Part shown: in pieces, positions 2,893 through 21,284 of the stretch
How positions within the stretch are numbered: position 1 is the stretch's first letter
How the letters are laid out: every line of letters starts with the position of its first letter
Assembly (NCBI GenBank): GCA_034717495.1
Contig: JAYELL010000001.1
Coordinates: forward strand, 66,649-130,648
Source: Chloroflexota bacterium
Lineage (GTDB): Bacteria; Chloroflexota; Anaerolineae; JAAEKA01
Reading direction: 5' to 3'
DNA: 64,000 nucleotides
Made by a program: the position numbers and the translations under genes
Notes under the pieces: generated by a model
What the model saw: only the letters and a program-made list of their open reading frames with translations
Database searches by the model: none
Told to the model about the DNA's origin: nothing

Positions 2893-5800
2893 ATGCTACA
2901 TGAAATGCGTTGGACCGAAACGAAAATCAGGCAGCGTCTTGAGCTGATCGAGCCGTTGGTTTACCGCCGACGTCAGCCGTTGGCATCCTTCAGGCACATG
3001 ACCTTGCCTGATCCCCTGACAGATCCGCCCATCGGCATCGAGGTGGATGACAGTGATTGGGAGACCATTGAGCCCGACTCCTATTGGGGCATCTGGATGA
3101 CCGACTACGCGCTGCGCACGTCGTTCCAGGTGCCGCAGGACTGGGATGCCGACAGCCCTGTTGCCCTCTACTTGCCTTTGGGCGAGGCAGGAGACTTCAG
3201 CCATCCAGAGGGGCTGGCCTATATCGACGGCGAGCCCTACGCGGCCTGCGACCGTCATCACCAGGAGATACTACTACCCGACAAATGGCGCGATGGAAAG
3301 TCGCACCTGCTGGCCTTGCATACCTGGACCGGACTGGGTGGCTGGCGATTTGATTCCCCGGCTACCAAGCTCTTCATGCGCACGTGCGAGGTAGTTCAGC
3401 TGGACCAGCCGACCCGCGATTTTGTGGCAACAGCCAGGGTAGCCCTGGGCATCGCCAGCGCCCTGGACGAGAACGCACCGGCCAAGGGAAACCTTCTCAA
3501 CGCCCTGGACGAGGCGTTCAAGATCCTCGATACGCGCGCGCCACTCGCCGACCGGTTTTACAACAGCGTTGCCCCAGCGCACGCCGCCCTGCAAGCAGGG
3601 ATCGATCTGGCCGGGGCACCGATGGACGTGGACGTCGTCGGCGTGGGACACGCCCACATCGATGTGGCCTGGTTGTGGACCCTGGGCCAGACTCGCCGGA
3701 AATCGGGCCGCACCTTCCATACGGTATTGCGCCTGATGGAACAGTTTCCCGATTATCACTTCGTCCAGAGCCAGCCCCAGCTGTACGACTATATCCAGGA
3801 GGACTATCCCGGGTTGCTGGATGCAATCAAGGAGCGTGTTGCCGAAGGCCGCTGGGAACCTCTGGGGGGCATGTGGGTAGAGGCAGACTGCAATCTGAGC
3901 GGCCCTGAATCCCTGGCGCGTCAGTTTTTGCTGGGCCGCACCTTTTTCCAGGAACACTTCGGCCGCGATGCCGACTCTCCGGTGCTGTGGCTGCCTGACG
4001 TTTTCGGCTATGCGTGGGCATTGCCCCAACTCATCAAACAGGCGGGCCTGGACTACTTCATGACCATCAAGATCGGTTGGAACCAATACAACCGGCTGCC
4101 CTACGACAGCTTCTGGTGGCAGGGGCTGGATGGCACCAGGGTATTGACCCACTTCAGCACGACGCCGGACGTGGGCGGTGGTTTTGGTGCCAGCACGTAC
4201 AACGCCATGGCGGTACCCGAACAGGCCATTACCACCTGGACCAATTTCCAGCAGAAGGAGCTGCAGCAAGAACTGCTGATGATCTTTGGTTACGGCGACG
4301 GTGGCGGTGGACCCACGAGGGAGATGTTGGAGAATTTCCGCGAGCTGGAGGCTTTTCCGGCGACACCACGGATGCGGCAGGACAGCGCCGGTGATTTCTT
4401 CCGCAACCTTGAAACGACCTCCGGAGACCGCCTTCCGACCTGGAATGCTGAGCTCTATTTCGAGCTTCATCGCGGCACCTACACTACCCAGAGTCGCAAT
4501 AAGCGAGCCAACCGCAAGAGCGAGTTCTTGCTGCATGATGCCGAATATCTGGCCACATTAGCCGCCATGCTGGATTCTGGATATGAGTATCCTGCTGCTA
4601 CCATACGAAAGGCCTGGGAGTTGGTCTGCCTCAATCAGTTCCACGACATCATCCCGGGAAGCAGTATCAACCCTGTGTACGTCGAGTCCCTGGAACAGTA
4701 TGCCGAGATCGAGGAGATGGGGTCTGGCGTGCGAGACAAGGCTTTGCAGGCGGTGGCAACAATAATCGGCAGCGATATCCTGGTTGTGAACCCCACCTCC
4801 TTTGTCCTGGATGATCTGGCCTACCTGCCCGAGCAACTGCAGGCTGGTGAGCGTCTGCAGCGGCCCGATGGCGTGCCGGTACCGACCCAGGTGGCTGACG
4901 GTGGCACATGGGCCGCTACGGGCGAACTGGCTCCATTCAGCGTAACCCCGCTCGCCGTGGCCGGCGGCAACCCACCGGAGTTGGACACAGAACTCAATGT
5001 TTCGCCCACGCTGCTCGAAAACGCCTACCTCCGGGTGGAACTTGACCCGGCCGGTGACATCGTGCGCATTCTCGACAAGGCAAACGATCGGGAGGTGCTG
5101 CCGGCTGGTACGGTTGCCAATCAGTTCCAGGCCCTGGAGGACCGGCCAATGAACTGGGATGCCTGGGATGTGGACATCTTCATCGACGACAAGATGTGGA
5201 CTGCAGAACCGGCAACCTCGGTCGAGGTCGTGGAGGCGGGTCCGCTGCGGGCCACCCTGGAGATCCGCCGGCGCGTTCTCAACAGCAATTACGTTCAGCG
5301 CATCTCGTTGAGTCACAACAGCGCTCGCCTGGACTTCGATACCCAAATCGACTGGCGGGAACGTCATATCATGCTCAAAGTGGCCTTCCCGGTGGAGGTC
5401 TTCTCACCGGTGGCGACCTATGAGATCCAATGGGGCAACGTCGAGCGGCCCACCCACAGCAACACCAGTTGGGATTGGGCCCGCTTCGAGACCTGCGCTC
5501 AGAAATGGGTCGATCTTAGCGAGGGTGGCTATGGTATCAGTCTGCTCAACGACTGCAAGTATGGCCACGACATCAAGGACAATGTGATGCGCATTAGCCT
5601 GCTGCGCGGTCCAACCAGTCCCGATCCCGAGGCCGACCAGGGTGAACATCGTTTTGCGTACAGCTTGCTTCCCCACGCCGGTGGTTGGGGCGAGACGACA
5701 ATCGCGGCAGCCTATGCCTTGAATGATCCGTTGATTGTGTGGGTCAACCCAGGTGAACTTGAATCGTCGGCTCAGGCTACTCAGGTTGATGACTCTGGTG

Positions 5801-8221: not shown

Positions 8222-8291
8222 GATGACACGGAGACGCGGCGACGCAGAGACACGGCGATATTCTGACATTCCGACATTCTGACACACTGGC
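8222..8291 (+). repeat. 8-bp-phased GACA-type repeat array upstream of the ROK kinase gene
   Basis: gatgacac ggagacgc ggcgacgc agagacac ggcgatat tctgacat tccgacat tctgacac, then ATG at 8292. Confidence 0.55.
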
Positions 8292-9254
8292 ATGCTGAAT
8301 CCCTGGGTTATCGGCGCCGATTTGGGCGGCACCAAGATCGAGTTGGGCCTGGTTGATCCTGAGAACCAGGTTGTGGCCCGGAGGCGCATTGCCACCGAGG
8401 CCGAAAAAGGGCCCGATCACGTGGTCAACGGAATCGCTGGCAGCGTCGGCGATCTTCGCGCTGCCCTGCCTTCAGGAGCGAAGATAGCAGCTCTGGCCAT
8501 CTGCTCGCCCGGTCCGCTCGATCACGAAAGCGGTGTGTTGATGGACCCGCCCAATCTTCGCGGCCTTCATAACACACCCTTGCGCCAAATGCTGGAGGAT
8601 CGACTGCAGATGCCGGTTGCCCTGGAGCATGATGCTAAGGCCGCTGCTCTGGGTGAGCTTAACTTCGGTGCCGGCCGCGGGGCATCCAGTATGGTCTATA
8701 TCGTCGTCGGTACCGGTGTGGGTGCGGCCATAATCCTGGATGGCAACATGGTCCGCGGCGAACATAACTTTGCCGGTGAGGTAGGGCATATCACCATTGA
8801 CCGCTACGGGGAGTTGTGCCACTGCGGAAGCCGGGGCTGTGCCGAAACCTTTATCAGCGGTCCTTCCCTTGCGAAACGATATCGCCAGGCCATGGAGAAT
8901 GAGGGCAGCGCTGTAGATGCCCGGCCCATCTCGGGAGAGTTTGTGTCGGAGCTGGCTGCCCAGGGTGACCACCTGGCTGAAACCGTTATGCAGGCCGCCG
9001 GCGAGGCGCTGGGACTGGTCGTCGCTTCCCTGGCGATGACTGTCAATGTCGACCTGTATGTCATTGGCGGTAGTGTGGTCAATGCAGGTGACCTGCTGCT
9101 CGAGCCCGCGCGCCGTACTGTCCCCCACTATACCTTCCAGTCGGTGGGTGACAACGTGCGCATTGTTGCAGCCGGGCTGGGGGGAGTTGGACCCGTTCTG
9201 GGCTGTGCGTGGCTTGCCCGGCAGATCGACCAGGAGGATTTGCTGCAAAAATGA
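8292..9254 (+). CDS. ROK family sugar kinase (glucokinase-like; no N-terminal HTH)
   Basis: Begins directly with the ATP-binding motif IGADLGGTKIELGLVD. ROK zinc motif HCGSRGCAETFISG. 320 aa with no wHTH extension, so kinase rather than repressor. Confidence 0.75.
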   Translation: MLNPWVIGADLGGTKIELGLVDPENQVVARRRIATEAEKGPDHVVNGIAGSVGDLRAALPSGAKIAALAICSPGPLDHESGVLMDPPNLRGLHNTPLRQMLEDRLQMPVALEHDAKAAALGELNFGAGRGASSMVYIVVGTGVGAAIILDGNMVRGEHNFAGEVGHITIDRYGELCHCGSRGCAETFISGPSLAKRYRQAMENEGSAVDARPISGEFVSELAAQGDHLAETVMQAAGEALGLVVASLAMTVNVDLYVIGGSVVNAGDLLLEPARRTVPHYTFQSVGDNVRIVAAGLGGVGPVLGCAWLARQIDQEDLLQK

Positions 9255-11683
9255 GACAAACCTTGCACCAGCTCAACGAAAATCCCCTATCAGCCTTTCC
9301 TCCAGAGTTGTGGCATTCTACACGGCCCTCTGAACGGGCGGCCCGCATCAAGGGCCGGTTGCTGAGCGATGAACGCCAGGTTGATATCGAGCGGGCTCGC
9401 TACGCGACAGAGAGCTACAGGGAAACCGAGGGACGGCCCATGCCTCTGCGTCGGGCCGCCATGCTGCTTCATCTGGTCCGCCACATGAGCATCGGCATTG
9501 AGCCCGACGAGTTGATCGTGGGCAACCGTTCCTTGTTACCCAGAATGGGAGTCATTGCGCCGGAGGGCGCCGTCGCCTGGATCGATCGGGAACTGGATAT
9601 CCTTTCCACTCGTCCCCAGGATCGCTTCAACATTCGTCCGGAGCAGCGTAGTGAGCTCCGCGAACAGATATTTCCCTATTGGCAGGGCAAAACCCTGGAG
9701 GATATGGTTGCCAGGCGCGTGCCCGATCATGTCAAGGTAGCGGTGAAGGGCAAAGCCTTCAGTCTGAACCAGACCGATCATGCTCAGGGCCACATCCTGC
9801 CTGACGTCGCCGGTTGGTTGAGGCTTGGGATCGGCGGCTTCAGGCGAAAAGTGATCGAGGCTCAAGGTGGTGCTGAAACTGCCGGGCAGGAGGTGTTTTA
9901 CAGGGCCTCGCTGATGGCTCTTGAGGCGGCTCAAACCTTCATACGCCGTTACGCCCATCTCGCCCGTCAGCAGGCCAACGACATGGCCGAACAGACCAGA
10001 AGGGCTGAGTTGGAAGAGATCGCCTCGGCGTGCGATCTGCTTTCTGAACGGCCACCTCGAACCTTCGGGCAGGCATTGCAGGCGGTCTGGTTTCTTTTTG
10101 TGCTTCTGCAGATCGAATCAAATGCCAGCAGTTTTTCGCCCGGGCGCCTGGACCAATACCTGTTGCCCTGCCTGGAGCGGGATATTGCCTCGGGTCGCCT
10201 CTCCCTTCCCGAGGCCCAGGAACTGTTGGAGCATCTTTGGTTGAAGTTCAATGAGATCGTCTTGCTGCGAAGTAGCAGCAGCGCCCGCTATTTCGCCGGT
10301 TTTCCCATCGGTTTCAACATCTCCCTGGGAGGACAGCTGGAAGAGGGCCGCGATGCCACCAATATGCTCAGCTACATGTGCCTCAGGGCCCAGGCCGACC
10401 TGGGTCTGACTCAACCCAATCTGTCGATCCGTATCCACCAAAACAGCCCTCAGGAGTTTCTGATGGCTGCCACTGCTGTCATCAGCAAGGGCAGTGGTAT
10501 GCCCCAGGTGTTCAACGATGAGGTGGTGATCCCGGGCCAGATAAACCGGGGGATTGCCCCGGTCGACGCCCGAAACTACGCGGCCGTCGGCTGCGTTGAG
10601 CTGTCCACACCGGGCAAGGCATTGGGCTGGAGTGATTCCTCTATGTTCAATATGATCAGGGTGTTGGAGCTGACGCTCTTTGGCGGCAGAGACCCAAAGA
10701 GCGGCGACCTGATCGGCCTCGAAACGCCTGCCGTGGACGAGATGGATAGCTTCGATGCCCTCGAGGCTGCCTATGACTTGCAGTTGGCTCACTTCGTCGA
10801 TCTGATGGTGCAAGGCTGCAATGTGGTGGACCGCATTCATGCCGAGGTTCTGCCGTCCCCCTTTCTGTCGCTGGTTATCGAGGACTGCATCGACCAGGGG
10901 GTTGACGTTACTGCCGGCGGTGCCCGCTACAATTTCTCCGGTCCCCAGGGTGTGCAGATTGCCAACGTTGCCGATAGCCTGGCTGCCATTTGCCAGGCCG
11001 TTTTCGAGGAGGCGTGGCTCTCGGGCAGTGAGCTGCTCGACGCGCTGCAAAACGATTTTGCCGGCGACGAACAACTGCGGCAACGGCTGATCAACCGGGT
11101 TCCAAAATATGGCAACGACGACGACCGCGTCGACAGGTTCGCCAAAAAATGGGCAGGCCGTTTTTGCCAGGAAGTTGGCCAATACCCGACGATGCGGGGC
11201 GGGACCTACCAGCCTGGTTTTTATACCGTCTCCGGGCACATGCCCATGGGCGCCCATGTAGGCGCGACGCCGGATGGCCGTCATGCTGGCACACCGCTGG
11301 CGGACGGCGGACTTTCGCCCGTGGCCGGCCAGGACCGCAAAGGGCCGACGGCGGTACTTAATTCGGTCGGCAAAATCAACCTGGAACTGGCTTCCAATGG
11401 CACCTTGCTGAATATGAAGTTTTTGCCTTCTTTTTTCGAGGGACAGCAGGCACTGGAGAAGTTCGTCTTGTTGTTGCGAGGGTTCTGTAGCTTGCGAATC
11501 CCTCACGTGCAGTTCAATGTCGTCTCGGCTGATACCCTGCGCCAGGCTCAGATGCATCCCGATCAGTATCGCCACTTGGTTATCCGGGTAGCCGGCTACA
11601 GTGCCTACTTCAGCGACCTGGACAAAGATCTGCAGAATGAGATTATCCGCCGTACCGGGTTTCCCGACATTCCGACATGCTGA
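9251..11683 (+). CDS. glycyl radical enzyme, eliminase/dehydratase clade (PFL-like fold)
   Basis: C-terminal glycyl-radical motif RVAGYSAYFSDL. Cys loop GCVE (VGCVELSTPGK), typical of single-Cys/Glu GRE eliminases (glycerol dehydratase, CutC, HypD type) rather than the PFL CC type. N-terminal region matches GRE eliminases (ERARYATESYRETEGRPMPLRRA...LIVGN). The ATG at 9251 overlaps the ROK stop. Confidence 0.85.
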   Translation: MRQTLHQLNENPLSAFPPELWHSTRPSERAARIKGRLLSDERQVDIERARYATESYRETEGRPMPLRRAAMLLHLVRHMSIGIEPDELIVGNRSLLPRMGVIAPEGAVAWIDRELDILSTRPQDRFNIRPEQRSELREQIFPYWQGKTLEDMVARRVPDHVKVAVKGKAFSLNQTDHAQGHILPDVAGWLRLGIGGFRRKVIEAQGGAETAGQEVFYRASLMALEAAQTFIRRYAHLARQQANDMAEQTRRAELEEIASACDLLSERPPRTFGQALQAVWFLFVLLQIESNASSFSPGRLDQYLLPCLERDIASGRLSLPEAQELLEHLWLKFNEIVLLRSSSSARYFAGFPIGFNISLGGQLEEGRDATNMLSYMCLRAQADLGLTQPNLSIRIHQNSPQEFLMAATAVISKGSGMPQVFNDEVVIPGQINRGIAPVDARNYAAVGCVELSTPGKALGWSDSSMFNMIRVLELTLFGGRDPKSGDLIGLETPAVDEMDSFDALEAAYDLQLAHFVDLMVQGCNVVDRIHAEVLPSPFLSLVIEDCIDQGVDVTAGGARYNFSGPQGVQIANVADSLAAICQAVFEEAWLSGSELLDALQNDFAGDEQLRQRLINRVPKYGNDDDRVDRFAKKWAGRFCQEVGQYPTMRGGTYQPGFYTVSGHMPMGAHVGATPDGRHAGTPLADGGLSPVAGQDRKGPTAVLNSVGKINLELASNGTLLNMKFLPSFFEGQQALEKFVLLLRGFCSLRIPHVQFNVVSADTLRQAQMHPDQYRHLVIRVAGYSAYFSDLDKDLQNEIIRRTGFPDIPTC

Positions 11684-11923
11684 CACGGTGACACGGCGAC
11701 ACGGTGACATGGCAAATGTGCAGGAGTCGAGGCTGTGCGTAGCCCCCTTTTTGGGTTAGCCGGGAGAGAGACACGGCGACGCGGTGACACGGCGACGCGG
11801 CGACGCGGTGACACGGCGACGCGGAGACGCGGTGACACGGCGATGCGGAGACGCGGTGACACGGCGACGCGGAGACACAGCGACACGGCGACATGCTGAC
11901 ATTCCGACCTGAGGAGGTGACAA
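11684..11923 (+). repeat. long 8-bp-phased GNGACNCG repeat array (about 28 octamers) upstream of the URO-D-like gene
   Basis: gacattccgacatgctgacacggtgacacggcgacacggtgacatggc ... gacacggcgacgcggtgacacggcgacgcggcgacgcggtgacacggcgacgcggagacgcggtgacacggcgatgcggagacgcggtgacacggcgacgcggagacacagcgacacggcgacatgctgacattccgac, then gaggaggtgacaaATG. Confidence 0.6.
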
Positions 11924-13156
11924 ATGCTAAGTTCGCGTGAACGGGTGATGATGGCTGTTAACCACCGGGAGCCCGATCGCGTACCGATCGATCTGGGCGG
12001 CCATCGCTCGTCCGGGATCATGGCGATTGCCTACAATCAGCTGAAGCGGCAGCTGGGAATCGACTCGGGCGACATCTACGTCTACGATTTTCTGCAGCAA
12101 TTGGCGATTATCGAGCCTGAGGTGTTGGACCGCTTTGGCGTCGACACAATCGAAATGGGGCGCGGGTTTGCACTTGAGCCGGAAGACTGGCAGGATTGGG
12201 TGTTGCCTGACGGGACCCCGTGCAAGATTCCCTCCTTCATTCACCCTGTTCGCGAAGGCAATGATTGGTACGTCTACCACGAGGATGGCACTCGAATCGC
12301 GGTTCAGAAAGAGAGCTGTTTATATGTGGAGCAGACCTGTTTCCCGCTTGCTGAGAGCGACGATCAGCTCTTTGACGATCTGGCAACGCCCCTGGAAAGG
12401 GTCATGTGGGCAGCCGTGGGTACCCCTCCGGCGCCCATTGGCTACGACGAACAGGGGCTGCAACAACTGGCTGCCGGGGCGAAGGCTCTGCGCGAGTCGA
12501 GCGATCGGGCCATAATCGGACTCTTCGGCGGGAACATCTACGAGTTGCCCCAGTGGCTCTTCAGCATGGAAAACTTTTATTACCTCATGGGCGCGGAGCC
12601 ACAGCGAGTACACCGGCTGTTGGACCAACTGGTAGCCATGCACTTGGAGAACCTGGAGAAGTTCCTGTCAGCGGTTGGGCCCTACATCGACATCATTCTT
12701 TTCGGCGACGACCTGGGTATGCAGAGTGGCCCCCAGTTCTCGCCTCGCATGTTCGAGACCTACTTCCAGCCTCGTTACACTCTGATGTGGGAAACGGCCA
12801 GACGCCTTGCCGATGTCAAGGTAATGCTGCATTGCTGCGGCAGTATCACGCGGTTATTGCCCGGCCTGATCGAAGCGGGGTTGGATATCATTCAGCCTGT
12901 CCAGACCAACGCACGGGATATGGAACCTGACCGGCTCAAGCGCGAGTTTGGCAAGGATATCTGTCTCTGGGGCGGTGGATGTGACACACAGCAGGTGTTG
13001 CCCTGCGGGTCACCCGAGGAGGTGGCCGAGAATGTTCGTCAGAACGTAGAGATCCTGGCGCCGCAAGGCGGCTACGTATTTCAGCAGATTCATAACGTGA
13101 TGGCCGATGTTCCGCCCGAAAATATCGTCGCCATGCTGGATGCTGTTAACCCCTGA
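11924..13156 (+). CDS. uroporphyrinogen decarboxylase (URO-D/MtaA) family protein
   Basis: N-terminus ERVMMAVNHREPDRVPIDLGG matches the URO-D family opening (ERVxAALxGxxxDRVP). C-terminal core FSPRMFETYFQPRY...VMLHCCGSITRLLPGLIEAGLDIIQPVQ...ICLWGG...PQGGYVFQQIHNV. Confidence 0.7.
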   Translation: MLSSRERVMMAVNHREPDRVPIDLGGHRSSGIMAIAYNQLKRQLGIDSGDIYVYDFLQQLAIIEPEVLDRFGVDTIEMGRGFALEPEDWQDWVLPDGTPCKIPSFIHPVREGNDWYVYHEDGTRIAVQKESCLYVEQTCFPLAESDDQLFDDLATPLERVMWAAVGTPPAPIGYDEQGLQQLAAGAKALRESSDRAIIGLFGGNIYELPQWLFSMENFYYLMGAEPQRVHRLLDQLVAMHLENLEKFLSAVGPYIDIILFGDDLGMQSGPQFSPRMFETYFQPRYTLMWETARRLADVKVMLHCCGSITRLLPGLIEAGLDIIQPVQTNARDMEPDRLKREFGKDICLWGGGCDTQQVLPCGSPEEVAENVRQNVEILAPQGGYVFQQIHNVMADVPPENIVAMLDAVNP

Positions 13157-13169
13157 GAACGGAGGCTTC

Positions 13170-14405
13170 ATGGCTGGAGCACAACGCGGGAATTCCAGAT
13201 TGCTCATCGCCTTGGCGTTCCTGAGCTTCATCGCAATGGGTCTGTTTGTCGGCTTGATGGGCGTGGCCTGGCCATCTATTCGCCTGAGCTATGGCATCCC
13301 TCTCGATGCCATAGGGGCTTTGTTTCTGTTTTCCATGGCCGCATCTCTGATCTTTAGCTTCAGTAGTGGCCGTCTGATAGCTGGCGTCGGATTAGGTGTC
13401 CTTCTGTTAATCGGCGGAATCCTGGCCTCTCTGGGTTTTTTGGGATACGCGGCAGCGCCCGCCTGGTGGACGATGATTCTGGCCGCGGCCATCGCCTCGG
13501 CGGGCACCACACTCATAAACACCGGCCTCAATACCTACTTCGCCATCATTTCCACGGCAAGTCTCATGAGCTGGCTCCACGCCAGCTTTGGTCTGGGCGC
13601 TACCATCAGTCCGATCGTGATGGCTGCTATGCTGAATGCCGGATATTCCTGGCGCTGGGGTTTCGCCTTCGTGGCACTCTGTTTCGCTGTTTTGTCCCTC
13701 CTCTACCTCTTCACCCGCAGGCACTGGCCTCTGCCAGAGCACAAGGCCTCCGACCAATCCACCGACGTACCGGTGCAGTCCAGCTACCGGGACAGCCTGA
13801 AACTTGCAGGCGTCTGGCTGAGCCTGTTGCTTTTTGCCGCCTTTACCGGCATGGAGGGGACCGCGGGCCAGTGGCCCTATGTGCTTTTCACCGAATCACG
13901 CGCTATAGATCCTGTCGTCGCCGGCCTGTGGGTCAGTATCTTTTGGGCCAGCATCACGATGGGCCGGCTGTTCTTTGGCGCGATCGTCGGTCGAACGGGC
14001 ACCGTCCCACTGATTCGCGCTTGCGGCGTGCTGATCGTCGCTGGATCGGCTCTGCTCTGGTGGAATCCCAGCAATACACTCAGTTTCGCAGGCCTCATCC
14101 TGATCGGTTTCGCTGCGTCCCCGTATTTCCCGGTGCTTGCCTCGGAAACACCCAGATTGTTTGGCCAGGAGAACGCCGCCAACATAATCGGATTCCAGAT
14201 TACTGCCGTTCGTCTGGGATTGGCTATCGTGCCGGCTTCCGTCGGGGTTCTGGCCCGCGCCGCCGGCCTGGAGACCATTGGCTTGTCGATGTTTGCAATT
14301 GCCGTTGCGGTTGTCGTATTATATGAGTTGACCCTGCGCACCACGGCGCGTGCCGAAACGGCGCTGCCCGAAGGCGAGGGGAGTTATGGAAAGGAACTAG
14401 CATGA
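13170..14405 (+). CDS. MFS transporter
   Basis: About 12 predicted TM helices; Gly/Ala-rich hydrophobic profile. The start at 13170 (RBS ggagg) follows the previous stop. Confidence 0.75.
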   Translation: MAGAQRGNSRLLIALAFLSFIAMGLFVGLMGVAWPSIRLSYGIPLDAIGALFLFSMAASLIFSFSSGRLIAGVGLGVLLLIGGILASLGFLGYAAAPAWWTMILAAAIASAGTTLINTGLNTYFAIISTASLMSWLHASFGLGATISPIVMAAMLNAGYSWRWGFAFVALCFAVLSLLYLFTRRHWPLPEHKASDQSTDVPVQSSYRDSLKLAGVWLSLLLFAAFTGMEGTAGQWPYVLFTESRAIDPVVAGLWVSIFWASITMGRLFFGAIVGRTGTVPLIRACGVLIVAGSALLWWNPSNTLSFAGLILIGFAASPYFPVLASETPRLFGQENAANIIGFQITAVRLGLAIVPASVGVLARAAGLETIGLSMFAIAVAVVVLYELTLRTTARAETALPEGEGSYGKELA

Positions 14406-15460
14406 CCAATTTATTGAAGGTAGGAGTTATCGGTGTCGGTGGTATCGCCAAATGGCACATGCCAGGATGGCAGGCATCTGAACATGCCGAGGTCGTTGCA
14501 GGCAGTGATATCGCCGGGGATGTGCTCGCTGGCTGGGGTGCAGAGTTTTCTGTCGACCGGCTCTACACCGATCCGGCGGATCTCTTTGCTGATCCAGACA
14601 TTGACATCATCGACATTTGCACGCCCAATATGTCCCACACGCCCCTGGTGATTGCGGCGCTGGACGCGGGAAAAAACGTCATCTGCGAGAAGCCGTTGGC
14701 TGCCACACCGGGGGAGATCGAGCAGATGATTGAGGCCCGCGATCGTTCCGGAAAACTTTTGATGACCGCACAACATTTCCGCTTCAAGGGTGTATCTCAG
14801 ACCATGAAGCAGGAGATCGAGGCGGGTGCGCTGGGAGATGTGTATCACGCGCGCAGCTGGCAATTGCGACGCAATGGCTTGTTTGTGCGGCCCAGTTTTA
14901 CGCGCAAGGAGTTCAGCGGGGGTGGCCCCTGTATCGACATCGGTGTACATATCCTCGACCTGTCGCTTTGGTTGATGGGCAATCCCCGGCCTGTGGCAGT
15001 GAGCGGTGTGGCCTGGGCGCCGTTGGCCCATCACGACAGGGCTTTTGCCAGTTGGACTGGCGAACTTATCCGCCCCGATTTCGATGTCGAGGACTATGCC
15101 GCCGCTTTCGTCAGATTCGACACCGGTGCCACGTTGATTCTTGAAGTGAGCTGGCTGCTGCATCACGATATCGAAGGGGAGGATTCTCAAGTGTGGCTCT
15201 ACGGCACCGAAGGTGGATGCCATTGGCCCAAGGCTCTGTTTCTCGAAACCAACTACGATTCAAAACAATTTTACAATCGCACGCTCAAGTTGACCGGGGA
15301 TGCCATGGAACCTCACGGGCTGGAGTGTGTGGCCTTTGCCGAGGCTGTGGCGGAAGGCAGGCCCTCACCCGTGCCGGCCGAACAGTCTCTTCAGGTCATG
15401 ACCATTTTGGATGGCATCTATCGCAGCCAGGAGACTGGACGCGAAATCTGGTTCGAATAA
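14402..15460 (+). CDS. Gfo/Idh/MocA family oxidoreductase
   Basis: VGVIGVGGIAKWHMPGW Rossmann N-terminus, CEKPLA motif; 352 aa. Confidence 0.8.
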   Translation: MTNLLKVGVIGVGGIAKWHMPGWQASEHAEVVAGSDIAGDVLAGWGAEFSVDRLYTDPADLFADPDIDIIDICTPNMSHTPLVIAALDAGKNVICEKPLAATPGEIEQMIEARDRSGKLLMTAQHFRFKGVSQTMKQEIEAGALGDVYHARSWQLRRNGLFVRPSFTRKEFSGGGPCIDIGVHILDLSLWLMGNPRPVAVSGVAWAPLAHHDRAFASWTGELIRPDFDVEDYAAAFVRFDTGATLILEVSWLLHHDIEGEDSQVWLYGTEGGCHWPKALFLETNYDSKQFYNRTLKLTGDAMEPHGLECVAFAEAVAEGRPSPVPAEQSLQVMTILDGIYRSQETGREIWFE

Positions 15461-15464
15461 AGGA

Positions 15465-16475
15465 ATGACAATTATGTTACGCACCGCAATGCTCGGCGTT
15501 GCCCATGTCCACGCCAATGGCTACGCCCGTCAGATTATCGAACATCCCGAAGCGCAGATCGTTTGTGTCTGGGATGACCAGGCTGACCGGGGAACGGCGG
15601 CCGCCGCCAGGTATGGAGTCCCGTTCGCCGATGACCTGGAGGCCCTTTTGAGTCGCCAGGATGTGGATGGTGTAGTGGTCAACGCGCCCACCGACCAGCA
15701 CCCTGAGATTCTAATAGCCGCAGCCGCTCATGGCAAACATATCTTCACCGAAAAAGCCCTCACGATCGCGACAGCCGACGCCGACCGGGTTGTCGACGCC
15801 GTCCACGCCAGTGGCATTAAGTTCATGATCTCCCTGCCAAGACGTACCTGGCCGGAAAGCCTGTTTTTCAAACAGGTGCTCGACGAGGGTTGGTTGGGCC
15901 GCGTCACCATGATGCGCGCGCGCCTGGCCCACCCCGGCGCGCTGGATCGATGGTTCAGCGGGCCGACCGCCTGGTTTGGCGACAGGGAGCAAGCGGGAGG
16001 CGGTGCATTGTTCGACCTGGGCTGTCACATCGTCGATCTGATGGGCTGGTTTCTCGGTGAGCCTGCCAGCGTCGTGGCAGTGACTCAGAATTTCAGCGGC
16101 GAATATGACATCGACGACCAGACCGTGGCCATCGTGCAGTTCAAGCAAGGTGCCCTGGGAATCCTGGACTGCACCTGGGTCCATCGGGCGGGCCCAAATC
16201 CTATTGAGATCTACGGCACGGAAGGCTACGCGGGCTATGATGGCCGGCGCGAGTCTATCCAGTTGATCAGCAACGAACTGCAGCCTGAGGGGATTCGCGG
16301 CAGCATTCACCCTCTGGAACTACCCGAGGCGCTGCCCTCTCCCATGGATCAGTGGATCAGCGCCGTGCTGCACGATACACCGATGACCATTGGCATCGAG
16401 GACGGCCGAAATCTTACGCGGCTCATGGAAGCGATCTACCAAGCTGCTGACAGTGGCTGCCAGGTTGTGGTTTGA
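15465..16475 (+). CDS. Gfo/Idh/MocA family oxidoreductase
   Basis: MLGVAHVHANGYARQI...TEKALT motif with dimerisation domain. The start could alternatively be the ATG at 15474. Confidence 0.75.
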   Translation: MTIMLRTAMLGVAHVHANGYARQIIEHPEAQIVCVWDDQADRGTAAAARYGVPFADDLEALLSRQDVDGVVVNAPTDQHPEILIAAAAHGKHIFTEKALTIATADADRVVDAVHASGIKFMISLPRRTWPESLFFKQVLDEGWLGRVTMMRARLAHPGALDRWFSGPTAWFGDREQAGGGALFDLGCHIVDLMGWFLGEPASVVAVTQNFSGEYDIDDQTVAIVQFKQGALGILDCTWVHRAGPNPIEIYGTEGYAGYDGRRESIQLISNELQPEGIRGSIHPLELPEALPSPMDQWISAVLHDTPMTIGIEDGRNLTRLMEAIYQAADSGCQVVV

Positions 16476-16527
16476 TGTCAATATGTCAGCATGTCAAAAT
16501 GACACAATGACATTCTGGAGAAAACCT
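16476..16527 (+). repeat. short GACA/TGTC octamer-type element upstream of the DHS-SIS gene
   Basis: gatgtcaatatgtcagcatgtcaaaatgacacaatgacattctggagaaaacct ATG. It shares the gacat(t)ccgacatgctgaca core seen at 8.26, 11.67, 11.89, 30.0 and 56.70 kb. Confidence 0.45.
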
Positions 16528-18249
16528 ATGCCTTTCCCGGCAATCGACACATCTCTCGTCCGCACCTACGCGCTGTCGGAACGACCGAGCCTGGTGGCCC
16601 TTGACCACCTTATCACACCGGAAATGCCGGTGCCGCCATTCGACAACCCGGAACTGGTCGAAGTAGCTACGCGAATCGTGGCTGCGCGCCAGGCGGGACG
16701 GCCTGTGATCTGGATGATCGGTGCTCATGTTGTGAAGCGTGGTCTGGCTCCGGTGCTCATCGACCTGATGCGGCGGGGCGTGATTACCCATCTGGCCAGC
16801 AATGGCGCAGCGCCGATCCATGACTTTGAGATTGCCTTGCTGGGCAATACCAGCGAGGATGTGTCCACAAGTCTTGAGGATGGCAGTTTCGGCATGGCGG
16901 AGGAAACGGGCGCTTTCATGAACCGGGCAATCCAGGCAGGCGCCCGCAGTGGTATCGGAGTTGGCGAGGCCCTGGGCCAATGGATTGCAGGGCATGATCG
17001 TTTTCGCTTCCGGGATCAGAGCCTGCTTTACTCTGCCTTCCACCTTGGAATCCCCTATACGGTGCATGTTGCGATTGGCACAGACATCATCCACCAGCAC
17101 CCGGAATGTGATTTCGCGGCCCTCGGTTGGGCCAGTGGTCAGGACTTCAAGGTCTTCACCAGTTCGGTCAGTCAACTGGAGGGTGGAGTCTTCTGTAACT
17201 TCGGTTCAGCGGTGATAGGTCCGGAGGTCTTCCTGAAGGCCCTTTCCATTGCTCGCAATCTGGGGCATAGGGTGCAGGTCTTCACTACGGCGAACTTCGA
17301 TATATTGCCCCTGGAGCAAGACTATCGTAAGCCCTCAACCGACGACCAGCCGACCTACTATTATCGACCGAAGAAGAATATTGTTATCCGGCCTACCTCC
17401 ATGGGTGGACGTGGCTACCACATCGTCGGTGATCACCGGGATACCATACCTAATTTGCATCATGAGGTAGTTCAAGGGCTCGCCGGTACGACCCTGCCCA
17501 ACCCACTGGATCGACGAAATGCAGCATTCGAAGGAGCTGGCGACCTGGAGATGCAATTTCCCAGGGCGGCCGCGTGCCTGTTGGGGGCGATCGAACGGCA
17601 ACCTGCTCTTGAGCCGGTGACGACCGCACTGATCGATGCTTTTCGTGTAGTAAATCTGGCTGAATCGACCGGTGGCACGCTTTTTCTCTGCGGAAACGGC
17701 GGAAGCATGGCAGACGCGCTGCACATTTCCGGCGAGCTACTGAAATCCTACGCCAGGAAACGATCTTTGGAGCAAGGCAGGTGCGATCGCTTGCTTCAGC
17801 AGCCCGATGGGGAACTGTTGGCTCGAAACCTGGAGCCTGGCCTGCGGGCAGTGGTTCTGGGCATCAACCCGTCGCTGGCCAGCGCCGTCGCCAACGACAT
17901 GCCCGATCGTGATATGAACCTGGCTCAGGAGTTGATGGCCCTGGCTCGTCCAGGCGACGTGCTGTTGGGCATCAGCACAAGCGGCAATGCCCGAAATGTG
18001 GCCTATGCCGCGCAGACTGCCCGCGCCCTCGGCGTCCATGTAATCGCTCTTACCGGCGAGGCCGGGGGCCTGCTCGCCGGCCTCGCCGATGTGGCCATCA
18101 AGGTTCCAGCTCAGCGCACCGACCGGGTCCAGGAGTTGCACATCCAGTGCTATCATACCCTGTGTGAAATGCTGGAGGAGCAGTTTTTTGGCGAGGAGGT
18201 TGGGCCATCGCAGGGATGTGTCCATCAACCGTTGGCCCTGTCACCTTGA
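16528..18249 (+). CDS. fusion protein: N-terminal deoxyhypusine-synthase-like (DHS-like NAD-binding) domain and C-terminal GmhA-type SIS domain (sedoheptulose-7-phosphate-isomerase-like)
   Basis: C-terminal ~190 aa is collinear with GmhA: LFLCGNGGSMADALHISGELL...VLLGISTSGNARNV...IALTGEAGG...VPAQRTDRVQELHIQCYHTLCE. N-terminal ~380 aa shows the DHS-like pattern (VIWMIGAHVVKRGLAPVLIDLMRRGVITHLASNGAAPIHDFEIALLG, compare IFLGYTSNLVSSGLRE..VDVLVTTAGGIEEDFIK). The domain assignment of the N-terminus is inferred from memory. Confidence 0.5.
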   Translation: MPFPAIDTSLVRTYALSERPSLVALDHLITPEMPVPPFDNPELVEVATRIVAARQAGRPVIWMIGAHVVKRGLAPVLIDLMRRGVITHLASNGAAPIHDFEIALLGNTSEDVSTSLEDGSFGMAEETGAFMNRAIQAGARSGIGVGEALGQWIAGHDRFRFRDQSLLYSAFHLGIPYTVHVAIGTDIIHQHPECDFAALGWASGQDFKVFTSSVSQLEGGVFCNFGSAVIGPEVFLKALSIARNLGHRVQVFTTANFDILPLEQDYRKPSTDDQPTYYYRPKKNIVIRPTSMGGRGYHIVGDHRDTIPNLHHEVVQGLAGTTLPNPLDRRNAAFEGAGDLEMQFPRAAACLLGAIERQPALEPVTTALIDAFRVVNLAESTGGTLFLCGNGGSMADALHISGELLKSYARKRSLEQGRCDRLLQQPDGELLARNLEPGLRAVVLGINPSLASAVANDMPDRDMNLAQELMALARPGDVLLGISTSGNARNVAYAAQTARALGVHVIALTGEAGGLLAGLADVAIKVPAQRTDRVQELHIQCYHTLCEMLEEQFFGEEVGPSQGCVHQPLALSP

Positions 18250-18406
18250 GCGGAAGTGCCTGATAGCTCATTGGACACGGAAAGTTGTTAGCGAAAGGTC
18301 CCAATCATGTGGGGCGAGATGCTTCGCTAGTCGCGCGTACGCGTGGTGTGCGACCTGTTCCACCGCTCAGCTTGACACGAGCCCACCACCCAGGAGAAGT
18401 TGAACC

Positions 18407-19363
18407 ATGCAACCACGAGATCGTTTCATCGCCGCCCTGGAGCGACGTCCCTTTACGGGCCGGGTACCCCATTTTGAACTGGTTTTTTATCTGACCATGG
18501 AGGCATTCGGCAGGGTTCATCCCGGACACCGAAGTTATCACCAGTGGATGCAGATGGATGAGGAGGAACGCCAGTTGCACCGGGTCGATATGGCCGGTCT
18601 TTATATCGCCACGGCAGAACGCTATGAGCACAGCGCCATCTTTCTCCATCCCAATCCAGACTCGCTGGAAGAGACCATTCGTCTGGTCGATCTTGTTCGG
18701 GAGCGTACCGGTGACCGCTACTTCCTCATGCGGCACGGGGACGCTACCTTCAGCATTCCCGACGGCACCACGATGGTGGATTTCGTCTACCGACTGGCCG
18801 ATGAGCCAGACAAGGTCAAAGCTGAGGCCCAGGAAAATGTAAACCATGCTCTTGAGCTCGCGGAGCAGCTGGCGAAACATGGAGAACTCGACGGATTCGC
18901 ACTCTGTGCGGATTACTGCTTCAACAGCGGGCCCTTTCTGAGTCCCAGGATGTTCTCGGAATTCATCACGCCCTATCTCACACAGCTTGTTCGCGGTTAT
19001 CGCCAACTGGGTTTCTACGTCATCAAACATACTGACGGCAACATCATGCCGATTATCGACGATCTGTTGGAGGGCGAACCCCATGCGCTGCATTCTCTGG
19101 ATCCGCAAGCCGGAATCGACATCGCCCAGGTTAAGCGGGATTTCGGCCATCGGGTCTGCCTGATTGGCAACGTCAATTGCGGGCTGTTGGATACCGGTAC
19201 CGAGGAAGAAGTCATCGAATCGGCCAGCTATGCGTTGAGGCACGGCATGCCCGGCGGAGGTTACATCTTTTCCACCAGCAATTGCATCTACACCGGCATG
19301 CGTCTCTCCCGCTACGAGTTGATGCTGGACGTCTGGCGCCGCGAGGGCAATTATGACGCGTAG
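18407..19363 (+). CDS. uroporphyrinogen decarboxylase (URO-D/MtaA) family protein, second paralog
   Basis: RDRFIAALERRPFTGRVPHFEL N-terminus. Strong C-terminal collinearity with URO-D/MtaA (FLSPRMFSEFITPY...IKHTDGNIMPIIDDLLEGEPHALHSLDPQAGIDIAQVKRDFGHRVCLIGNV...PGGGYIFSTSN). Preferred over the overlapping antisense ORF 18305-19243. Confidence 0.7.
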   Translation: MQPRDRFIAALERRPFTGRVPHFELVFYLTMEAFGRVHPGHRSYHQWMQMDEEERQLHRVDMAGLYIATAERYEHSAIFLHPNPDSLEETIRLVDLVRERTGDRYFLMRHGDATFSIPDGTTMVDFVYRLADEPDKVKAEAQENVNHALELAEQLAKHGELDGFALCADYCFNSGPFLSPRMFSEFITPYLTQLVRGYRQLGFYVIKHTDGNIMPIIDDLLEGEPHALHSLDPQAGIDIAQVKRDFGHRVCLIGNVNCGLLDTGTEEEVIESASYALRHGMPGGGYIFSTSNCIYTGMRLSRYELMLDVWRREGNYDA

Positions 19364-19371
19364 CGCGTAGA

Positions 19372-20430
19372 ATGAATCCTATGAAAAAACATCTATCGAC
19401 CGCTCGTCTGCAGGATATCCTCGATCGTTTCGGCGAGCTGCAAGTCGGCGTTATCGGTGATCTTGCACTCGATGCTTACTGGTATGCCGATATGACCCAG
19501 TCCTATCTTTCCCGCGAGACACCGCTTTTTCCACGGCCCGTGGTGCGCGAAGTGTACGCGCCCGGCGCGGGCGCCAACGTGGCCGACAACCTGGCGGCTC
19601 TCGGTGTGCGCAAGGTTGTCGCATTCTCCGTCATCGGTGATGACTGGCGCGGCCAACTCTTGCGACGGGAATTGACCGGGCGCGGTATCTCCGTCGAACA
19701 GCTGGTGGTCTCGGATCAACGAACGACCAGCTGCTACGTCAAACCGATCTTGATGGGCTTTGACTCGCAACAAGAGGACCCGCGTCTTGATTTCAGCAAC
19801 GCTGTCCCGCTCGATGGTCCGTCGGTGGAAGCGTTGATCGATCGGATTTCCAGGGAAATAACAAATCTGGACGCGCTGCTGGTTGCCGATCAATTCGAGC
19901 TGAATGGCATTATCGCGGACCCGGTTCTCGACGCGCTCAACCAATTGGCCGCCGATCATCCAGCTACCCACTTTGTTGTGGATTCGCGCCAGCGAATCGG
20001 CTTGTTCAGCCACATGGTGCTCAAGCCCAACTGGGTGGAGGCGGGGGCAGCAATTTACCCCCACCGTGACCCGCGGGATCTGAGCCAGGAGCAACTCGTT
20101 GAGGTCGGGAAACTATTGAGCCAGCGCAGCAGCCGGCCTGCTTTCATCACATTGAGTAACCGGGGCGCTCTGGTTTGCACGGAGGCTGAACAGGTCAGGG
20201 TACCGGCAGGACCTGTCCAGCCACCACTGGATCCGGTGGGCGCAGGCGATACATTTGTCGCTGCGCTGGCGGCATCTCTTGCAGCTGGGGCCGCGCCGGC
20301 CGAGGCGGCCGCGGTCGCCAATCTGGCGGCTTCCATCACCGTCGAAAAACTCAACCAGACCGGCACCGCTACACCCGAAGAGATCGTGGTTCGCTACGAA
20401 TTGGCCAGCACTCAGGAGGATTCCCGTTGA
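19372..20430 (+). CDS. PfkB-family sugar kinase resembling D-glycero-beta-D-manno-heptose-7-phosphate kinase (HldE domain I / HldA-like)
   Basis: VGVIGDLALDAYWYADMTQSYLSRETPLFPRPVVREVYAPGAGANVADNLAALG parallels HldE [46 protein letters not shown]. C-terminal PfkB motif DPVGAGDTFVAALAASLAAG. Confidence 0.7.
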   Translation: MNPMKKHLSTARLQDILDRFGELQVGVIGDLALDAYWYADMTQSYLSRETPLFPRPVVREVYAPGAGANVADNLAALGVRKVVAFSVIGDDWRGQLLRRELTGRGISVEQLVVSDQRTTSCYVKPILMGFDSQQEDPRLDFSNAVPLDGPSVEALIDRISREITNLDALLVADQFELNGIIADPVLDALNQLAADHPATHFVVDSRQRIGLFSHMVLKPNWVEAGAAIYPHRDPRDLSQEQLVEVGKLLSQRSSRPAFITLSNRGALVCTEAEQVRVPAGPVQPPLDPVGAGDTFVAALAASLAAGAAPAEAAAVANLAASITVEKLNQTGTATPEEIVVRYELASTQEDSR

Positions 20431-21284
20431 CCTTATCCCCAATCATCACTGCCGGCGAACTGCCGCCCCTGCCATGGCTGGAGGTCATCAATCCTTTGGC
20501 CCGTCTCGGGCAGGTGCGCCACGCCCTGTTCGACTTCGACGGTACTATCTCGGTCATTCGCAGGGGTTGGGAGCAGATCATGATTCCCTTGATGGTTGAG
20601 ATGATCTGCGAAGATCAGCCACCGTCGCCGGAGATCGAAGCGCAGGTGGAAGACTATGTGGATCTTTCGACCGGTATCCTGACAATCAAGCAGATGGAAT
20701 GGCTCGAACAAGCCGTGGTGCGGCACGACCTTGCCAGCAGAAAGTTGACTGCCCGCCAATACAAAACGATCTACAACGAACGATTGCTTCAACCGGTGCG
20801 AGCGCGCATGGCCCTGATGGAAGGAAGCGGCGATTCCCGCGAGACCCTGATGATTGCCGGAGTCCGGGCATTCCTGGAAGACCTTCAAGAGCGGGGCGTG
20901 AGTCTCTATCTGGCCAGCGGCTCCGATCACGTGTACGTGGTGGAAGAAGCCACAGCTCTGGGTGTTGCCGACTTTTTTGATGGACACATCTACGGGGCGC
21001 GCGATGACACAGAAGCCTATTCCAAGGATCGAATCATCTACCGCATTCTGGACGACCATGATCTGGCCGGCGAGCAGTTATTGGTTGTAGGGGATGGTCC
21101 GGTGGAGATCCGTCATGCCCGGGACAGGGGTGCCCTGGCCCTCGGTATTGCCGCCGACGAGGAACTGCGGCAGGGGCTCGATTCCCGTAAACGCCAACGG
21201 TTGTTGCTGGCCGGTGCCGACCTGCTGGTGACCGATTTTTTGCACCACGAGCAGTTGGCCGGGATTTTGGCCGGCGACGGGTAG
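20427..21284 (+). CDS. HAD superfamily phosphatase
   Basis: Motif I ALFDFDGTIS (DxDGT), motif II LASGS, motif IV VVGDGPVE..D; 285 aa. Translationally coupled to the upstream kinase by a 4-nt overlap. Confidence 0.65.
   Translation: MTLSPIITAGELPPLPWLEVINPLARLGQVRHALFDFDGTISVIRRGWEQIMIPLMVEMICEDQPPSPEIEAQVEDYVDLSTGILTIKQMEWLEQAVVRHDLASRKLTARQYKTIYNERLLQPVRARMALMEGSGDSRETLMIAGVRAFLEDLQERGVSLYLASGSDHVYVVEEATALGVADFFDGHIYGARDDTEAYSKDRIIYRILDDHDLAGEQLLVVGDGPVEIRHARDRGALALGIAADEELRQGLDSRKRQRLLLAGADLLVTDFLHHEQLAGILAGDG

Follow-up and report, generated by a model that had tools for sequence, protein, structure and literature searches.

GAC-phased octanucleotide arrays in intercistronic spacers of an uncultured Anaerolineae bacterium: a candidate lineage-specific satellite

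We report here a family of tandem arrays with an 8-nt period in a 64-kb stretch of DNA (contig JAYELL010000001.1) from an uncultured member of the Anaerolineae, a Chloroflexota metagenome-assembled genome (MAG) with the locus-tag prefix U9R25. This stretch, analyzed over its whole length, is referred to as the window. Nine of its intergenic regions carry such arrays, with 5 to ~36 units each, which together account for ~1.9% of the window and for 24% of its noncoding DNA. On balance, we read the arrays as a lineage-specific octanucleotide satellite of intercistronic spacers, a long simple-sequence repeat (SSR) of the short tandemly repeated repetitive (STRR) type. They may have grown in place, by replication slippage and unequal recombination, within the short spacers of sugar-catabolic operons. 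An earlier, sequence-only reading of the same DNA had proposed that the arrays mark the 5' ends of operons. The family it described is real, but the interpretation is only partly supported: the arrays adjoin upstream stop codons in eight of nine cases and are located inside operons that are contiguous in relatives, and a role as operon 5' marker is thus not upheld.

Results

Period and unit structure

Periodicity was analyzed with Tandem Repeats Finder and with a lag-identity scan in which lag-8 windows were scored at a threshold of at least 70% identity. The dominant tandem signal of the scan was at lags 8, 16, 24, and 32, and Tandem Repeats Finder returned period 8 with the multiples 16, 24, and 72. 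At lag 8, 255 sliding windows reached the threshold, compared with none in 100 first-order Markov simulations, and 247 of them (97%) are noncoding. All nine regions for which an 8-nt phase had been claimed carry period-8 tandem arrays (Table 1).

Divided into octamers, the arrays have G-A-C at positions 1 to 3 of nearly every unit, and positions 4 to 8 vary from array to array. The arrays at 8.2, 11.7, 30, and 56.7 kb contain unit types GACRCGGN and GATAGGGA; those at 2.8 and 21.5 kb contain GACACTCC and GACTCTGA; those at 51 and 62 kb contain GTAGAYAA and GGAAACAA; and the one at 2.7 kb contains GTTCAGAG and TATCAGAG. Units of type GACATKCY are found at array edges. No unit of the window contains a GGG run (see, for example, GACACGGC and GACGCGGT). 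As the sequence-only reading had noticed, many arrays share a core: the 14-nt sequence TGACATTCCGACAT gave seven matches at up to two mismatches (0.5 expected) and recurs in six spacers. A 20-mer core, GACATTCCGACATGCTGACA, was absent from all other loci compared, and a metagenome scan for it returned one unrelated match.

The internal layout is satellite-like, with degenerate core-type units at the edges and homogeneous units, organized into 24-, 72-, and 95-nt higher-order repeats, inside. In the 56.7-kb array, the 24-nt order is 87% matched, and hence not the perfect super-period reported earlier, and the 72-nt order is 92% matched. The tandem duplication described at 21.3 kb is genuine; it measures 95 nt, not ~100, and its two copies are 94 to 99% identical. 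At 2.7 and 11.7 kb, a single 8-nt register is held from the stop codon through to the Shine-Dalgarno (SD) sequence, and at 11.7 kb this register survives a nonrepeat stretch of 56 nt (7 x 8).

Position and orientation relative to genes

All nine array regions lie between co-directional genes, and in all nine the GAC strand, which is purine-rich, is the coding strand of both flanking genes. Neither the two divergent nor the three convergent regions of the window carry an array (0/5). Array orientation flips along with the genes four times in 64 kb and therefore tracks transcription, not replication. The claimed sense orientation toward the downstream gene thus holds in nine of nine regions. The sole local exception is in array 4, of which the first three units (16477-16500) read TGTCA, the complement of TGACA.

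Eight of the nine arrays overlap the upstream stop codon or start no more than ~20 nt from it. Seven reach the ribosome-binding site (RBS) or the start codon of the downstream gene, ending 0 to 48 nt before the start. The earlier statement that the arrays end 10 to 45 nt ahead of a start codon is therefore adequate for these seven, but not for the 51-kb array and the main 62.3-kb array, which adjoin a stop codon and lie ~240 and ~140 nt, respectively, before the next start. Because all nine regions are co-directional, a position 5' of the downstream gene and a position 3' of the upstream gene are inseparable within the window. The two strands differ strongly in their content of YC dinucleotides (Y, pyrimidine), with sense versus antisense counts of 3 versus 88 at 56.7 kb, 6 versus 52 at 11.7 kb, and 11 versus 74 at 21.3 kb.

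The same operons in relatives

For comparison, we used contigs of relatives carrying the same operons (L121, L122, L125, L126-L130, L132, and L133), of which 104 kb were scanned for period 8. For the URO-D-like protein encoded after the main array, the best matches have at most 82% identity, and the named ones are from Anaerolineae or Chloroflexota MAGs. The operon ROK-GRE-UROD-SIS-UROD-PfkB-HAD (GRE, glycyl-radical enzyme) is present in L122 and in parts in L121 and L126-L130. The operon RPE-GFO-2-hydroxyacid dehydrogenase-SDRx3-GntR-ADH-GFO-ADH is found in L132 and L133. Spacers are 10 to 25 nt long in the relatives where the window holds arrays of 52 to 300 nt. At the same threshold, no period-8 segment was detected in the 104 kb of relatives versus 12 in the 64-kb window. 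Two gene junctions differ further. Upstream of ROK, relatives have a promoter (TTGACA-17-TATGAT), and the window has an upstream gene and an array. Between RPE and the 2-hydroxyacid dehydrogenase, there is a GFO/IDH/MocA gene in L132 (10678-11709) and L133 (1482-2522); the window lacks this gene and holds only a 300-nt array there (56682-56982).

Shorter repeats are nevertheless present in some relatives. The closest of them, L125 (82% identity in the URO-D-like protein), contains four GAC-phased heptamers (GACCGGC GACGGCC GACGGCT GACCGCA; 562-588) in the orthologous spacer between the glycyl-radical enzyme and URO-D genes, in sense orientation and with flanks that can be aligned to the window. 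These heptamers likely represent a seed stage of the 32-unit array at 11.7 kb, and since a four-unit GAC repeat is present at the orthologous spot, this array would have expanded in place. In L133, two spacers contain TCACCTTG arrays of 2 to 5 units (2585-2625 and 4474-4494), which correspond to the GGTGACAA type in antisense orientation; one of them occupies the orthologous position ahead of the 2-hydroxyacid dehydrogenase gene. In L132, two operon spacers begin with an identical 22-mer, TGATGCGTGAAACGTGATGCGT (14394-14415 and 16998-17019), of which the first TGA is the upstream stop codon. These traces in L125, L133, and L132 indicate that this clade commonly carries short repeats that begin at stop codons; the long arrays are of recent date and appear to have grown in place.

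Tests for promoters, RNA structure, and coding potential

The best sigma-70-type site of the window (31855-31883; TTGACA-17-TATCAT, 11/12, extended TG) is located in a divergent intergenic region without an array, upstream of a SorC-type regulator operon. The only promoter-like match inside any array is a weak one (9/12) at 56739-56711. Promoter and terminator scans of the window gave no enrichment within arrays, and no -10 element was found in them at a suitable distance; the array ends abut the SD sequence, so that a -10 element plus leader could not be accommodated. The suggestion of a promoter or UP-element architecture is thus not substantiated.

The same is true of structured 5' leaders. 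Compared with dinucleotide shuffles, the folding z-scores of four array regions were -0.42 (11.7 kb), 0.00 (56.7 kb), +1.96 (21.3 kb), and -1.05 (2.7 kb), that is, these regions have no excess RNA structure. Rfam gave no match in the window at gathering thresholds, and with E values up to 1 there were only two chance matches, both outside the arrays. SD-like 4-mers are not enriched over composition-matched shuffles in eight of the nine arrays.

Translated low-complexity repeats were ruled out: seven of the nine arrays have sense-strand stops in all three frames, in several arrays within a few tens of nucleotides, and the short stretches at 16.5 and 62.3 kb have one or two frames without a sense stop. 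Overlap with genes is limited to the first or last array unit, and the 8-nt period is not a multiple of 3. A CRISPR array was ruled out as well, given that CRISPRs consist of repeats of 23 to 50 nt with unique spacers and the octamers here are contiguous, without spacers. The arrays are thus, as proposed earlier, a dispersed family that is neither coding nor CRISPR. An assembly artifact was rejected, as gene boundaries are respected throughout the arrays and comparable ones are found in complete isolate genomes. The antisense array strand is pyrimidine-rich and open in all frames, resulting in long spurious open reading frames (ORFs) across arrays (10118-11710, minus strand; 21034-21723, minus strand; 56581-57183, plus strand), a trap for gene callers.

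GACA-phased octamers in other genomes

Five GACA boxes spaced by 8 nt were sought in a single genome of each species, and at least 120 loci were returned; what follows holds among the matches listed. About one third are (GACA)n tetramers in Firmicutes, and the remainder are true octamer arrays. Their hosts are Chloroflexota (Caldilineaceae, Roseiflexaceae, Anaerolineae, and Ardenticatenaceae), cyanobacteria (Nostoc, Rivularia, Fischerella, and Tolypothrix), and Planctomycetota, Acidobacteriota, Gemmatimonadota, Bacteroidota, and a few others, with complete isolate genomes included. The four free unit positions are G-rich (G 162, A 89, C 62, T 35), and the dominant units are GACAAGGA, GACAAGGG, GACAGGGT, and GACAAGGT.

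The neighboring gene on the 5' side shares the GAC strand in 44 cases versus 16, with a median distance of 12 nt from its stop codon, which the array often overlaps. The gene located 3' shows no bias (21 same versus 28 opposite strand), at a median distance of 109 nt. Sorted by region class, 19 cases are convergent and 5 divergent, and of the co-directional ones 10 are sense and 6 antisense. The strand bias of the 5'-side gene and the proximity to its stop codon, together with the lack of bias on the 3' side, show that GACA-phased octamers elsewhere are generally associated with gene 3' ends. Such a placement, which the sequence-only reading had named as speaking against its proposal, is thus found for related arrays in other genomes, but not in this genome.

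In other Chloroflexota, Acidobacteriota, and related genomes (L003, L027, L066, L068, L073, L105, and L112), the inverted copy of a GACA-type array often comes directly after it, forming long imperfect hairpins at gene 3' ends. These hairpins could act as terminators or stabilizers.

Anatomy of individual arrays

In the first region, array 1b continues the 8-nt register of array 1a (offset 104 = 13 x 8) and is partly complementary to it. Array 2 begins 3 nt past the stop codon of a GFO/IDH/MocA gene, and the ROK start codon (8292) falls within the next core-like unit, GGCATGCT. Array 3a covers the last six codons of the glycyl-radical enzyme gene and provides its TGA stop (11681-11683); the encoded C terminus reads ...GFPDIPTC* versus ...EFVNI* in relatives and is three residues longer, from array codons. 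Past array 3b, the register continues through GACCTGAG GAGGTGAC, which holds the SD sequence GAGGAGGTG of the URO-D-like gene (ATG 11924). Array 4 begins 1 nt past a GFO stop codon and ends at the SD sequence GGAG of the SIS-domain gene (ATG 16528). Array 5 contains the duplication (21293-21387/21388-21478) and a run of GACTCTGA at 21477-21521. Array 8 is flanked by the RPE stop (56983) and the 2-hydroxyacid dehydrogenase start (56681).

Array 7, together with ~100 nt of unique sequence (51200-51354), forms a 154-nt module that is duplicated at 62338-62491. The two copies (51200-51353, minus strand; 62338-62491, plus strand) are 92% identical, each with seven AAGTAGAC-type octamers and ~100 nt of unique sequence carrying a 7-bp hairpin (ATCGTTG...CAACGAT), and the folding z-score of the module is -1.0. 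Each copy begins at the stop codon of a different upstream gene, in sense orientation. The presence of the module in two places suggests that an array plus its flank can be copied as one unit. A small ORF within the module was not treated as coding because the only two differences between the copies are both nonsynonymous and there is no SD sequence.

Table 1. Positions and composition of the tandem arrays and associated features in the window
Feature	Position	Strand	Composition and context
Array 1a	2697-2776	+	~10 units GTTCAGAG / TATCAGAG / TATCGGAG; first base within TGA stop (2696-2698) of pentapeptide-repeat gene
Array 1b	2801-2880	+	~10 units GACACTCC / GACTCTCT / GACATCCT / GACATAAT; end at SD AAGGAG of GH38 gene (ATG 2893)
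Array 2	8225-8288	+	8 units GACACGGA GACGCGGC GACGCAGA GACACGGC GATATTCT GACATTCC GACATTCT GACACACT
Array 3a	11666-11713	+	6 units, core GACATTCC GACATGCT first
Nonrepeat stretch	11714-11769	+	Exactly 7 x 8 nt, register kept; weak terminator-like hairpin (11731-11744), then T5
Array 3b	11770-11921	+	17 GAC-phased units GACACGGC / GACGCGGT / GACGCGGA, 24-nt super-period; final units GACATGCT GACATTCC
Array 4	16477-16516	+	5 units GTCAATAT GTCAGCAT GTCAAAAT GACACAAT GACATTCT
Array 5	21285-21544	+	Mixed 8/9-nt units CACGAAGGA, GACACGGA; between HAD hydrolase stop and GH2 start (21548)
Array 6a	30147-30181	-	~4 units GACACGGC GATACGAG GACACGGT GAACCGGT; in 357-nt spacer upstream of GNAT gene
Array 6b	29995-30026	-	Core only, GGCATTTT GACATTCC GACATGCT GCCATAGG; 38 nt upstream of GNAT start codon (29957)
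Array 7	51299-51354	-	7 units GGGGACAA GGAAACAA GTAGATAA ...; begins 2 nt past ADH stop
Array 8	56682-56969	-	~36 units GACGCGGT GACGCGGC GATAGGGA; 24-/72-nt higher orders; final units GACATGAT GGCATGAT GACATTCC GACATAAC
Array 9a	62338-62396	+	AAGTAAAT/AAGTAGAC type; provides TAA stop of phosphatase gene
Unique part of duplicated module	62397-62491	+	After array 9a
Mini-array 9b	62510-62536	+	Last unit holds ATG of squalene/phytoene synthase gene
Related 7-nt mini-array	28399-28426	-	GACAGCA GACGGCG GACCGCA GACCGCG; 14 nt after stop of unannotated 134-aa ORF (28440-28844)

Discussion

An intercistronic satellite would account for the main features of the arrays as follows. Growth by slippage and unequal recombination would be bounded solely by the upstream coding sequence and the downstream RBS, and for this reason most arrays would span the distance from stop codon to SD sequence and sometimes provide the stop or start codon themselves. 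Because the operons are continuous in relatives, we infer that the arrays are most likely cotranscribed with the flanking genes as a purine-rich, unstructured, and YC-poor spacer RNA. The orientation bias would then reflect selection on the mRNA, not promoter function. Any effect on function would come from the longer untranslated gap, which might break translational coupling and keep the next RBS open, and changes in copy number could result in variation of expression. The YC dinucleotide is the ligand of the primary binding site of Rho. If this preference applies here, one may speculate that only the YC-poor orientation is tolerated as a long untranslated gap within an operon. To our knowledge, cyanobacteria lack Rho, and the idea therefore fails for the similar cyanobacterial arrays.

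Several points weigh against this interpretation. The argument for cotranscription is drawn solely from the operon structure of relatives, and if arrays contain no promoters, the 17 genes between 1304 and 25290 would rely on very few promoters. Upstream of ROK, an array is present in the window where relatives have their sigma-70 promoter. The fixation of GAC while the other five positions vary, and the recurrence of the 14-nt core in six spacers, would also be expected from a sequence-specific binding protein. The antisense TCACCTTG arrays of L133, and a ratio of sense to antisense of only 10:6 in co-directional spacers among the matches listed from elsewhere, show that the orientation rule is not general. 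Moreover, the portion of the genome analyzed is the 64-kb window, and genes around the arrays of other genomes were placed by crude longest-ORF heuristic calls.

A binding protein is the basis of the main alternative, which corresponds to the arrays of regulator sites considered in the sequence-only reading. Here, a small cooperative DNA-binding protein, for example, of the ribbon-helix-helix (RHH) type, would read the (T)GAC(A/G) box at each 8-bp step and cover the arrays, which would act as a repressor, insulator, or nucleoid-organizing site. A conserved 3- to 4-nt box with a variable 4- to 5-nt spacer at a strict 8-bp period fits such a protein, as do the maintenance of the box period across arrays of which the remaining positions differ, the switch from TGTCA to TGACA within one register at 16.5 kb, and the excess of the 14-nt core. 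ParG binds the parH/OF site of plasmid TP228 at 8 to 20 degenerate boxes, each an ACTC tetramer with a 4-bp spacer (PMC3130281), and an 8-bp period is thus compatible with coating. For the same reason, the earlier remark that an 8-bp period is not helical phasing is no argument against protein binding. By contrast, an orientation with transcription in nine of nine cases is unexpected for a pure DNA site, the arrays do not overlap recognizable promoters, and the same operons do without arrays in relatives. No cognate small DNA-binding gene was identified within the window; with as many as 36 units per array and many spacers occupied, any regulator would be titrated, and related arrays elsewhere favor 3' ends and convergent regions. 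We regard this alternative as unlikely. We are similarly skeptical of a docking platform at the RNA level, according to which the transcribed arrays bind ribosomes (through SD-like motifs that serve as standby or STAB-SD-type sites) or a protein that reads RNA in an 8-nt register, with the downstream cistron protected or activated as a result. The strictly sense orientation in the window, the unstructured RNA, and array ends at the RBS agree with this. In addition, the units GACAAGGA, GACAAGGG, GACAGGGT, and GACAAGGT of other phyla, when placed in tandem, read AAGGAG or AAGGTG, and in the perfect arrays of these phyla the longest match of the units to the SD consensus averages 3.92 nt versus 3.45 to 3.56 nt (sd 0.08) for permuted units, which is statistical support for an SD-like reading there. 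Eight of nine window arrays, however, show no enrichment of SD-like 4-mers, many arrays of other genomes are between convergent genes, with no downstream cistron to serve, and relatives lack the arrays.

Promoters or UP elements that mark the 5' ends of transcription units appear very unlikely. It is true that seven of nine arrays end close to a start codon, that TGACA resembles a -35 hexamer, that there is one weak promoter-like match at 56.7 kb, and that the ROK promoter of relatives is located where the window has an array. This must be set against the lack of a suitably spaced -10 element, array ends that abut the SD sequence, and a best promoter of the window that is array-free. Arrays are also present inside operons that are contiguous in relatives, those at 51 and 62.3 kb are at a stop codon 140 to 240 nt from the next start, and convergent regions outnumber divergent ones 19 to 5 among the matches listed from other genomes. 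Least of all do we expect the arrays to be contingency loci, at which gain or loss of units switches or tunes adjacent genes by phase variation as an adaptive strategy. The recent duplications (95 nt at 99% identity and a 72-nt order at 92%) and the large differences in array length between relatives would be in line with frequent unit gain and loss. But degenerate units lower slippage rates, the flanking genes encode housekeeping sugar-catabolic enzymes, not surface or restriction functions, and an 8-nt unit that is neither within a coding sequence nor between -35 and -10 elements provides no on/off switch. Finally, GAC-phased octamers at stop codons might form a cross-phylum class of elements with a shared molecular reader, which we consider quite improbable. 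This class would comprise GACRCGGN or GACATKCY in the window and GACAAGGN elsewhere, in Chloroflexota, cyanobacteria, Planctomycetota, Acidobacteriota, Gemmatimonadota, and Bacteroidota among the matches listed. Its reader could be, for example, the anti-SD sequence of the ribosome or a protein that binds RNA or DNA in an 8-nt register, and such a system would govern the fate of mRNA and ribosomes after translation termination.

An intercistronic satellite has precedents, and the opinion that the arrays belong to no described class of elements needs correction, since transcribed 7-nt tandem repeats between aligned ORFs near stop codons are known (PMC4692102, PMC2670836). STRR sequences are tandem 7-nt repeats of heterocystous cyanobacteria that are found inside operons, for example, hupS-hupL; their function is unknown, and roles in transcript stability or translational coupling were proposed (PMC2670836). 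Rehm et al. (2015) described GGGNATC and GGGGA(C/T)T heptamers of 2 to 26 units in Xanthomonas and Nostoc, 89 to 93% intergenic in two xanthomonads (PMC4692102). These heptamers prefer spacers of aligned ORFs, are under-represented between divergent ORFs, are mostly transcribed, and, on the sense strand, lie no more than 50 bp from stop codons (PMC4692102). The arrays described here are similar in having head-to-tail units of 6 to 9 nt, dispersed over many intergenic regions in 2 to more than 25 units, in their preference for spacers of aligned ORFs near stop codons and their rarity in coding sequence and divergent spacers, and in a G-rich strand asymmetry and occurrence inside operons. They differ in a unit of 8 nt instead of 7 and, as they lack G-tracts, have no G-quadruplex potential. 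Octamer units without GGG runs make them a variant and not members of the heptamer/G-quadruplex subclass. Further differences are the many different units, which have in common only the GAC phase and a terminal core of 14 to 20 nt, the filling of the whole spacer from stop codon to SD sequence, an orientation that is sense in nine of nine cases, whereas heptamers are about equal on both strands, and a host from the Chloroflexota. Heptamers are at conserved loci between Xanthomonas species, whereas the window arrays are absent from relatives. In the literature searched, we found no description of octamer arrays in Chloroflexota, and literal tandem-octamer strings were likewise unmatched.

Other known repeats are less similar. 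MetJ binds tandem 8-bp met boxes (AGACGTCT), and the omega protein of pSM19035 binds heptads. Like the window arrays, the sites of these proteins and of ParG have a strict period, 8 bp for ParG and MetJ, with a conserved box, a variable spacer, and occasional inverted boxes. A GAC(A/G) box every 8 bp has the fixed-period short box typical of RHH arrays, as a resemblance only. ParG-, MetJ-, and omega-type arrays adjoin the gene of the binding protein at a promoter or centromere, with one or few sites per replicon; by contrast, at least nine window arrays are inside chromosomal operons and oriented with transcription. Beside them, neither a promoter nor a gene for a cognate binding protein was identified, and the flanking genes encode sugar enzymes. 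REP/BIME sequences of enterobacteria are dispersed, transcribed, species-specific intergenic elements that follow stop codons or lie within operons. A RAYT transposase spreads REPs, which are palindromic hairpins, whereas the window arrays are direct repeats without significant structure. The tandem repeats of Borgs, which reside on archaeal extrachromosomal elements, are perfect, have longer and variable units, and frequently fall within genes, which gives rise to disordered regions in the proteins. They resemble the window arrays in being pervasive, fast-evolving direct repeats of independent origin that are absent from related genomes (PMC9879509).

If the satellite interpretation is correct, about a quarter of the noncoding DNA of the window is a young satellite that has separated genes for which relatives have translational coupling. 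The window would then represent a natural experiment on the tolerance of operons to long untranslated gaps, on the birth of repeats at gene junctions, and on strand preference. For annotation, it matters that array edges shift stop and start codons and that the antisense strand gives spurious ORFs. The stop codon anchoring and the cross-phylum recurrence of GAC-phased octamers are most worth following.

Additional features of the window

The window has a G+C content of 58 to 60%, and 8.1% of it is noncoding; no tRNA or tmRNA genes were found within it. Its RPE protein is 100% identical to NCBI MEA3334361.1 (locus tag U9R25_00510). The gene content is nearly all carbohydrate-catabolic, with GH38 and GH2 glycosidases and many GFO/IDH/MocA and zinc-ADH oxidoreductases, along with ROK and PfkB kinases, a glycyl-radical enzyme, URO-D-like proteins, MFS transporters, and GntR and SorC regulators. 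A cluster conserved in Anaerolineae (8292-21284) encodes the glycyl-radical enzyme, the ROK kinase, two URO-D-like proteins, a SIS-domain protein, the PfkB kinase, and a HAD phosphatase. It may constitute an uncharacterized anaerobic sugar pathway; no activating enzyme for the glycyl-radical enzyme was recognized near the cluster.

The related 7-nt mini-array (28399-28426) lies 64 nt upstream of a promoter-like sequence, TTGACC-18-TATATT (28335-28306). The promoter at 31855 is followed by a leader (to 31935) with three CTGTTCA repeats (CATCTGTTCAAGCCTGTTCATCTGTTCAAG) upstream of the SorC/Sugar-bind regulator gene, of which these repeats may be the operator. The pentapeptide-repeat gene (1304-2698) is the source of a lag-15 signal in the periodicity scan, with minor counts at 20 and 30.

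Three further repeats were noted. A 67-nt palindromic element rich in G6/C6 (CCCCCC..GGGGGGAGCTGCCGGAAATTCCCCCCGTTGGGGGGTTAGGGGGG) is present in two copies with 87% identity (1061-1127 and 1205-1271), both in the 335-nt spacer after an ABC-transporter gene, and looks REP-like or terminator-like. A 44-nt dispersed intergenic repeat (CTGGACTCCCGCGTTCCCCG..GCGAGGATGACAGCGGGAG) is found at 1128-1171 and 25385-25428, 24 kb apart, with 93% identity. A dispersed element of ~60 nt, CAGCACGCYACGCCAGCAGGYGT.CCG.GAGG.AGCA.GCGGTGCGTGAGC, is common to a convergent spacer (25632-25700, plus strand) and the 51-kb spacer (51090-51200, minus strand).

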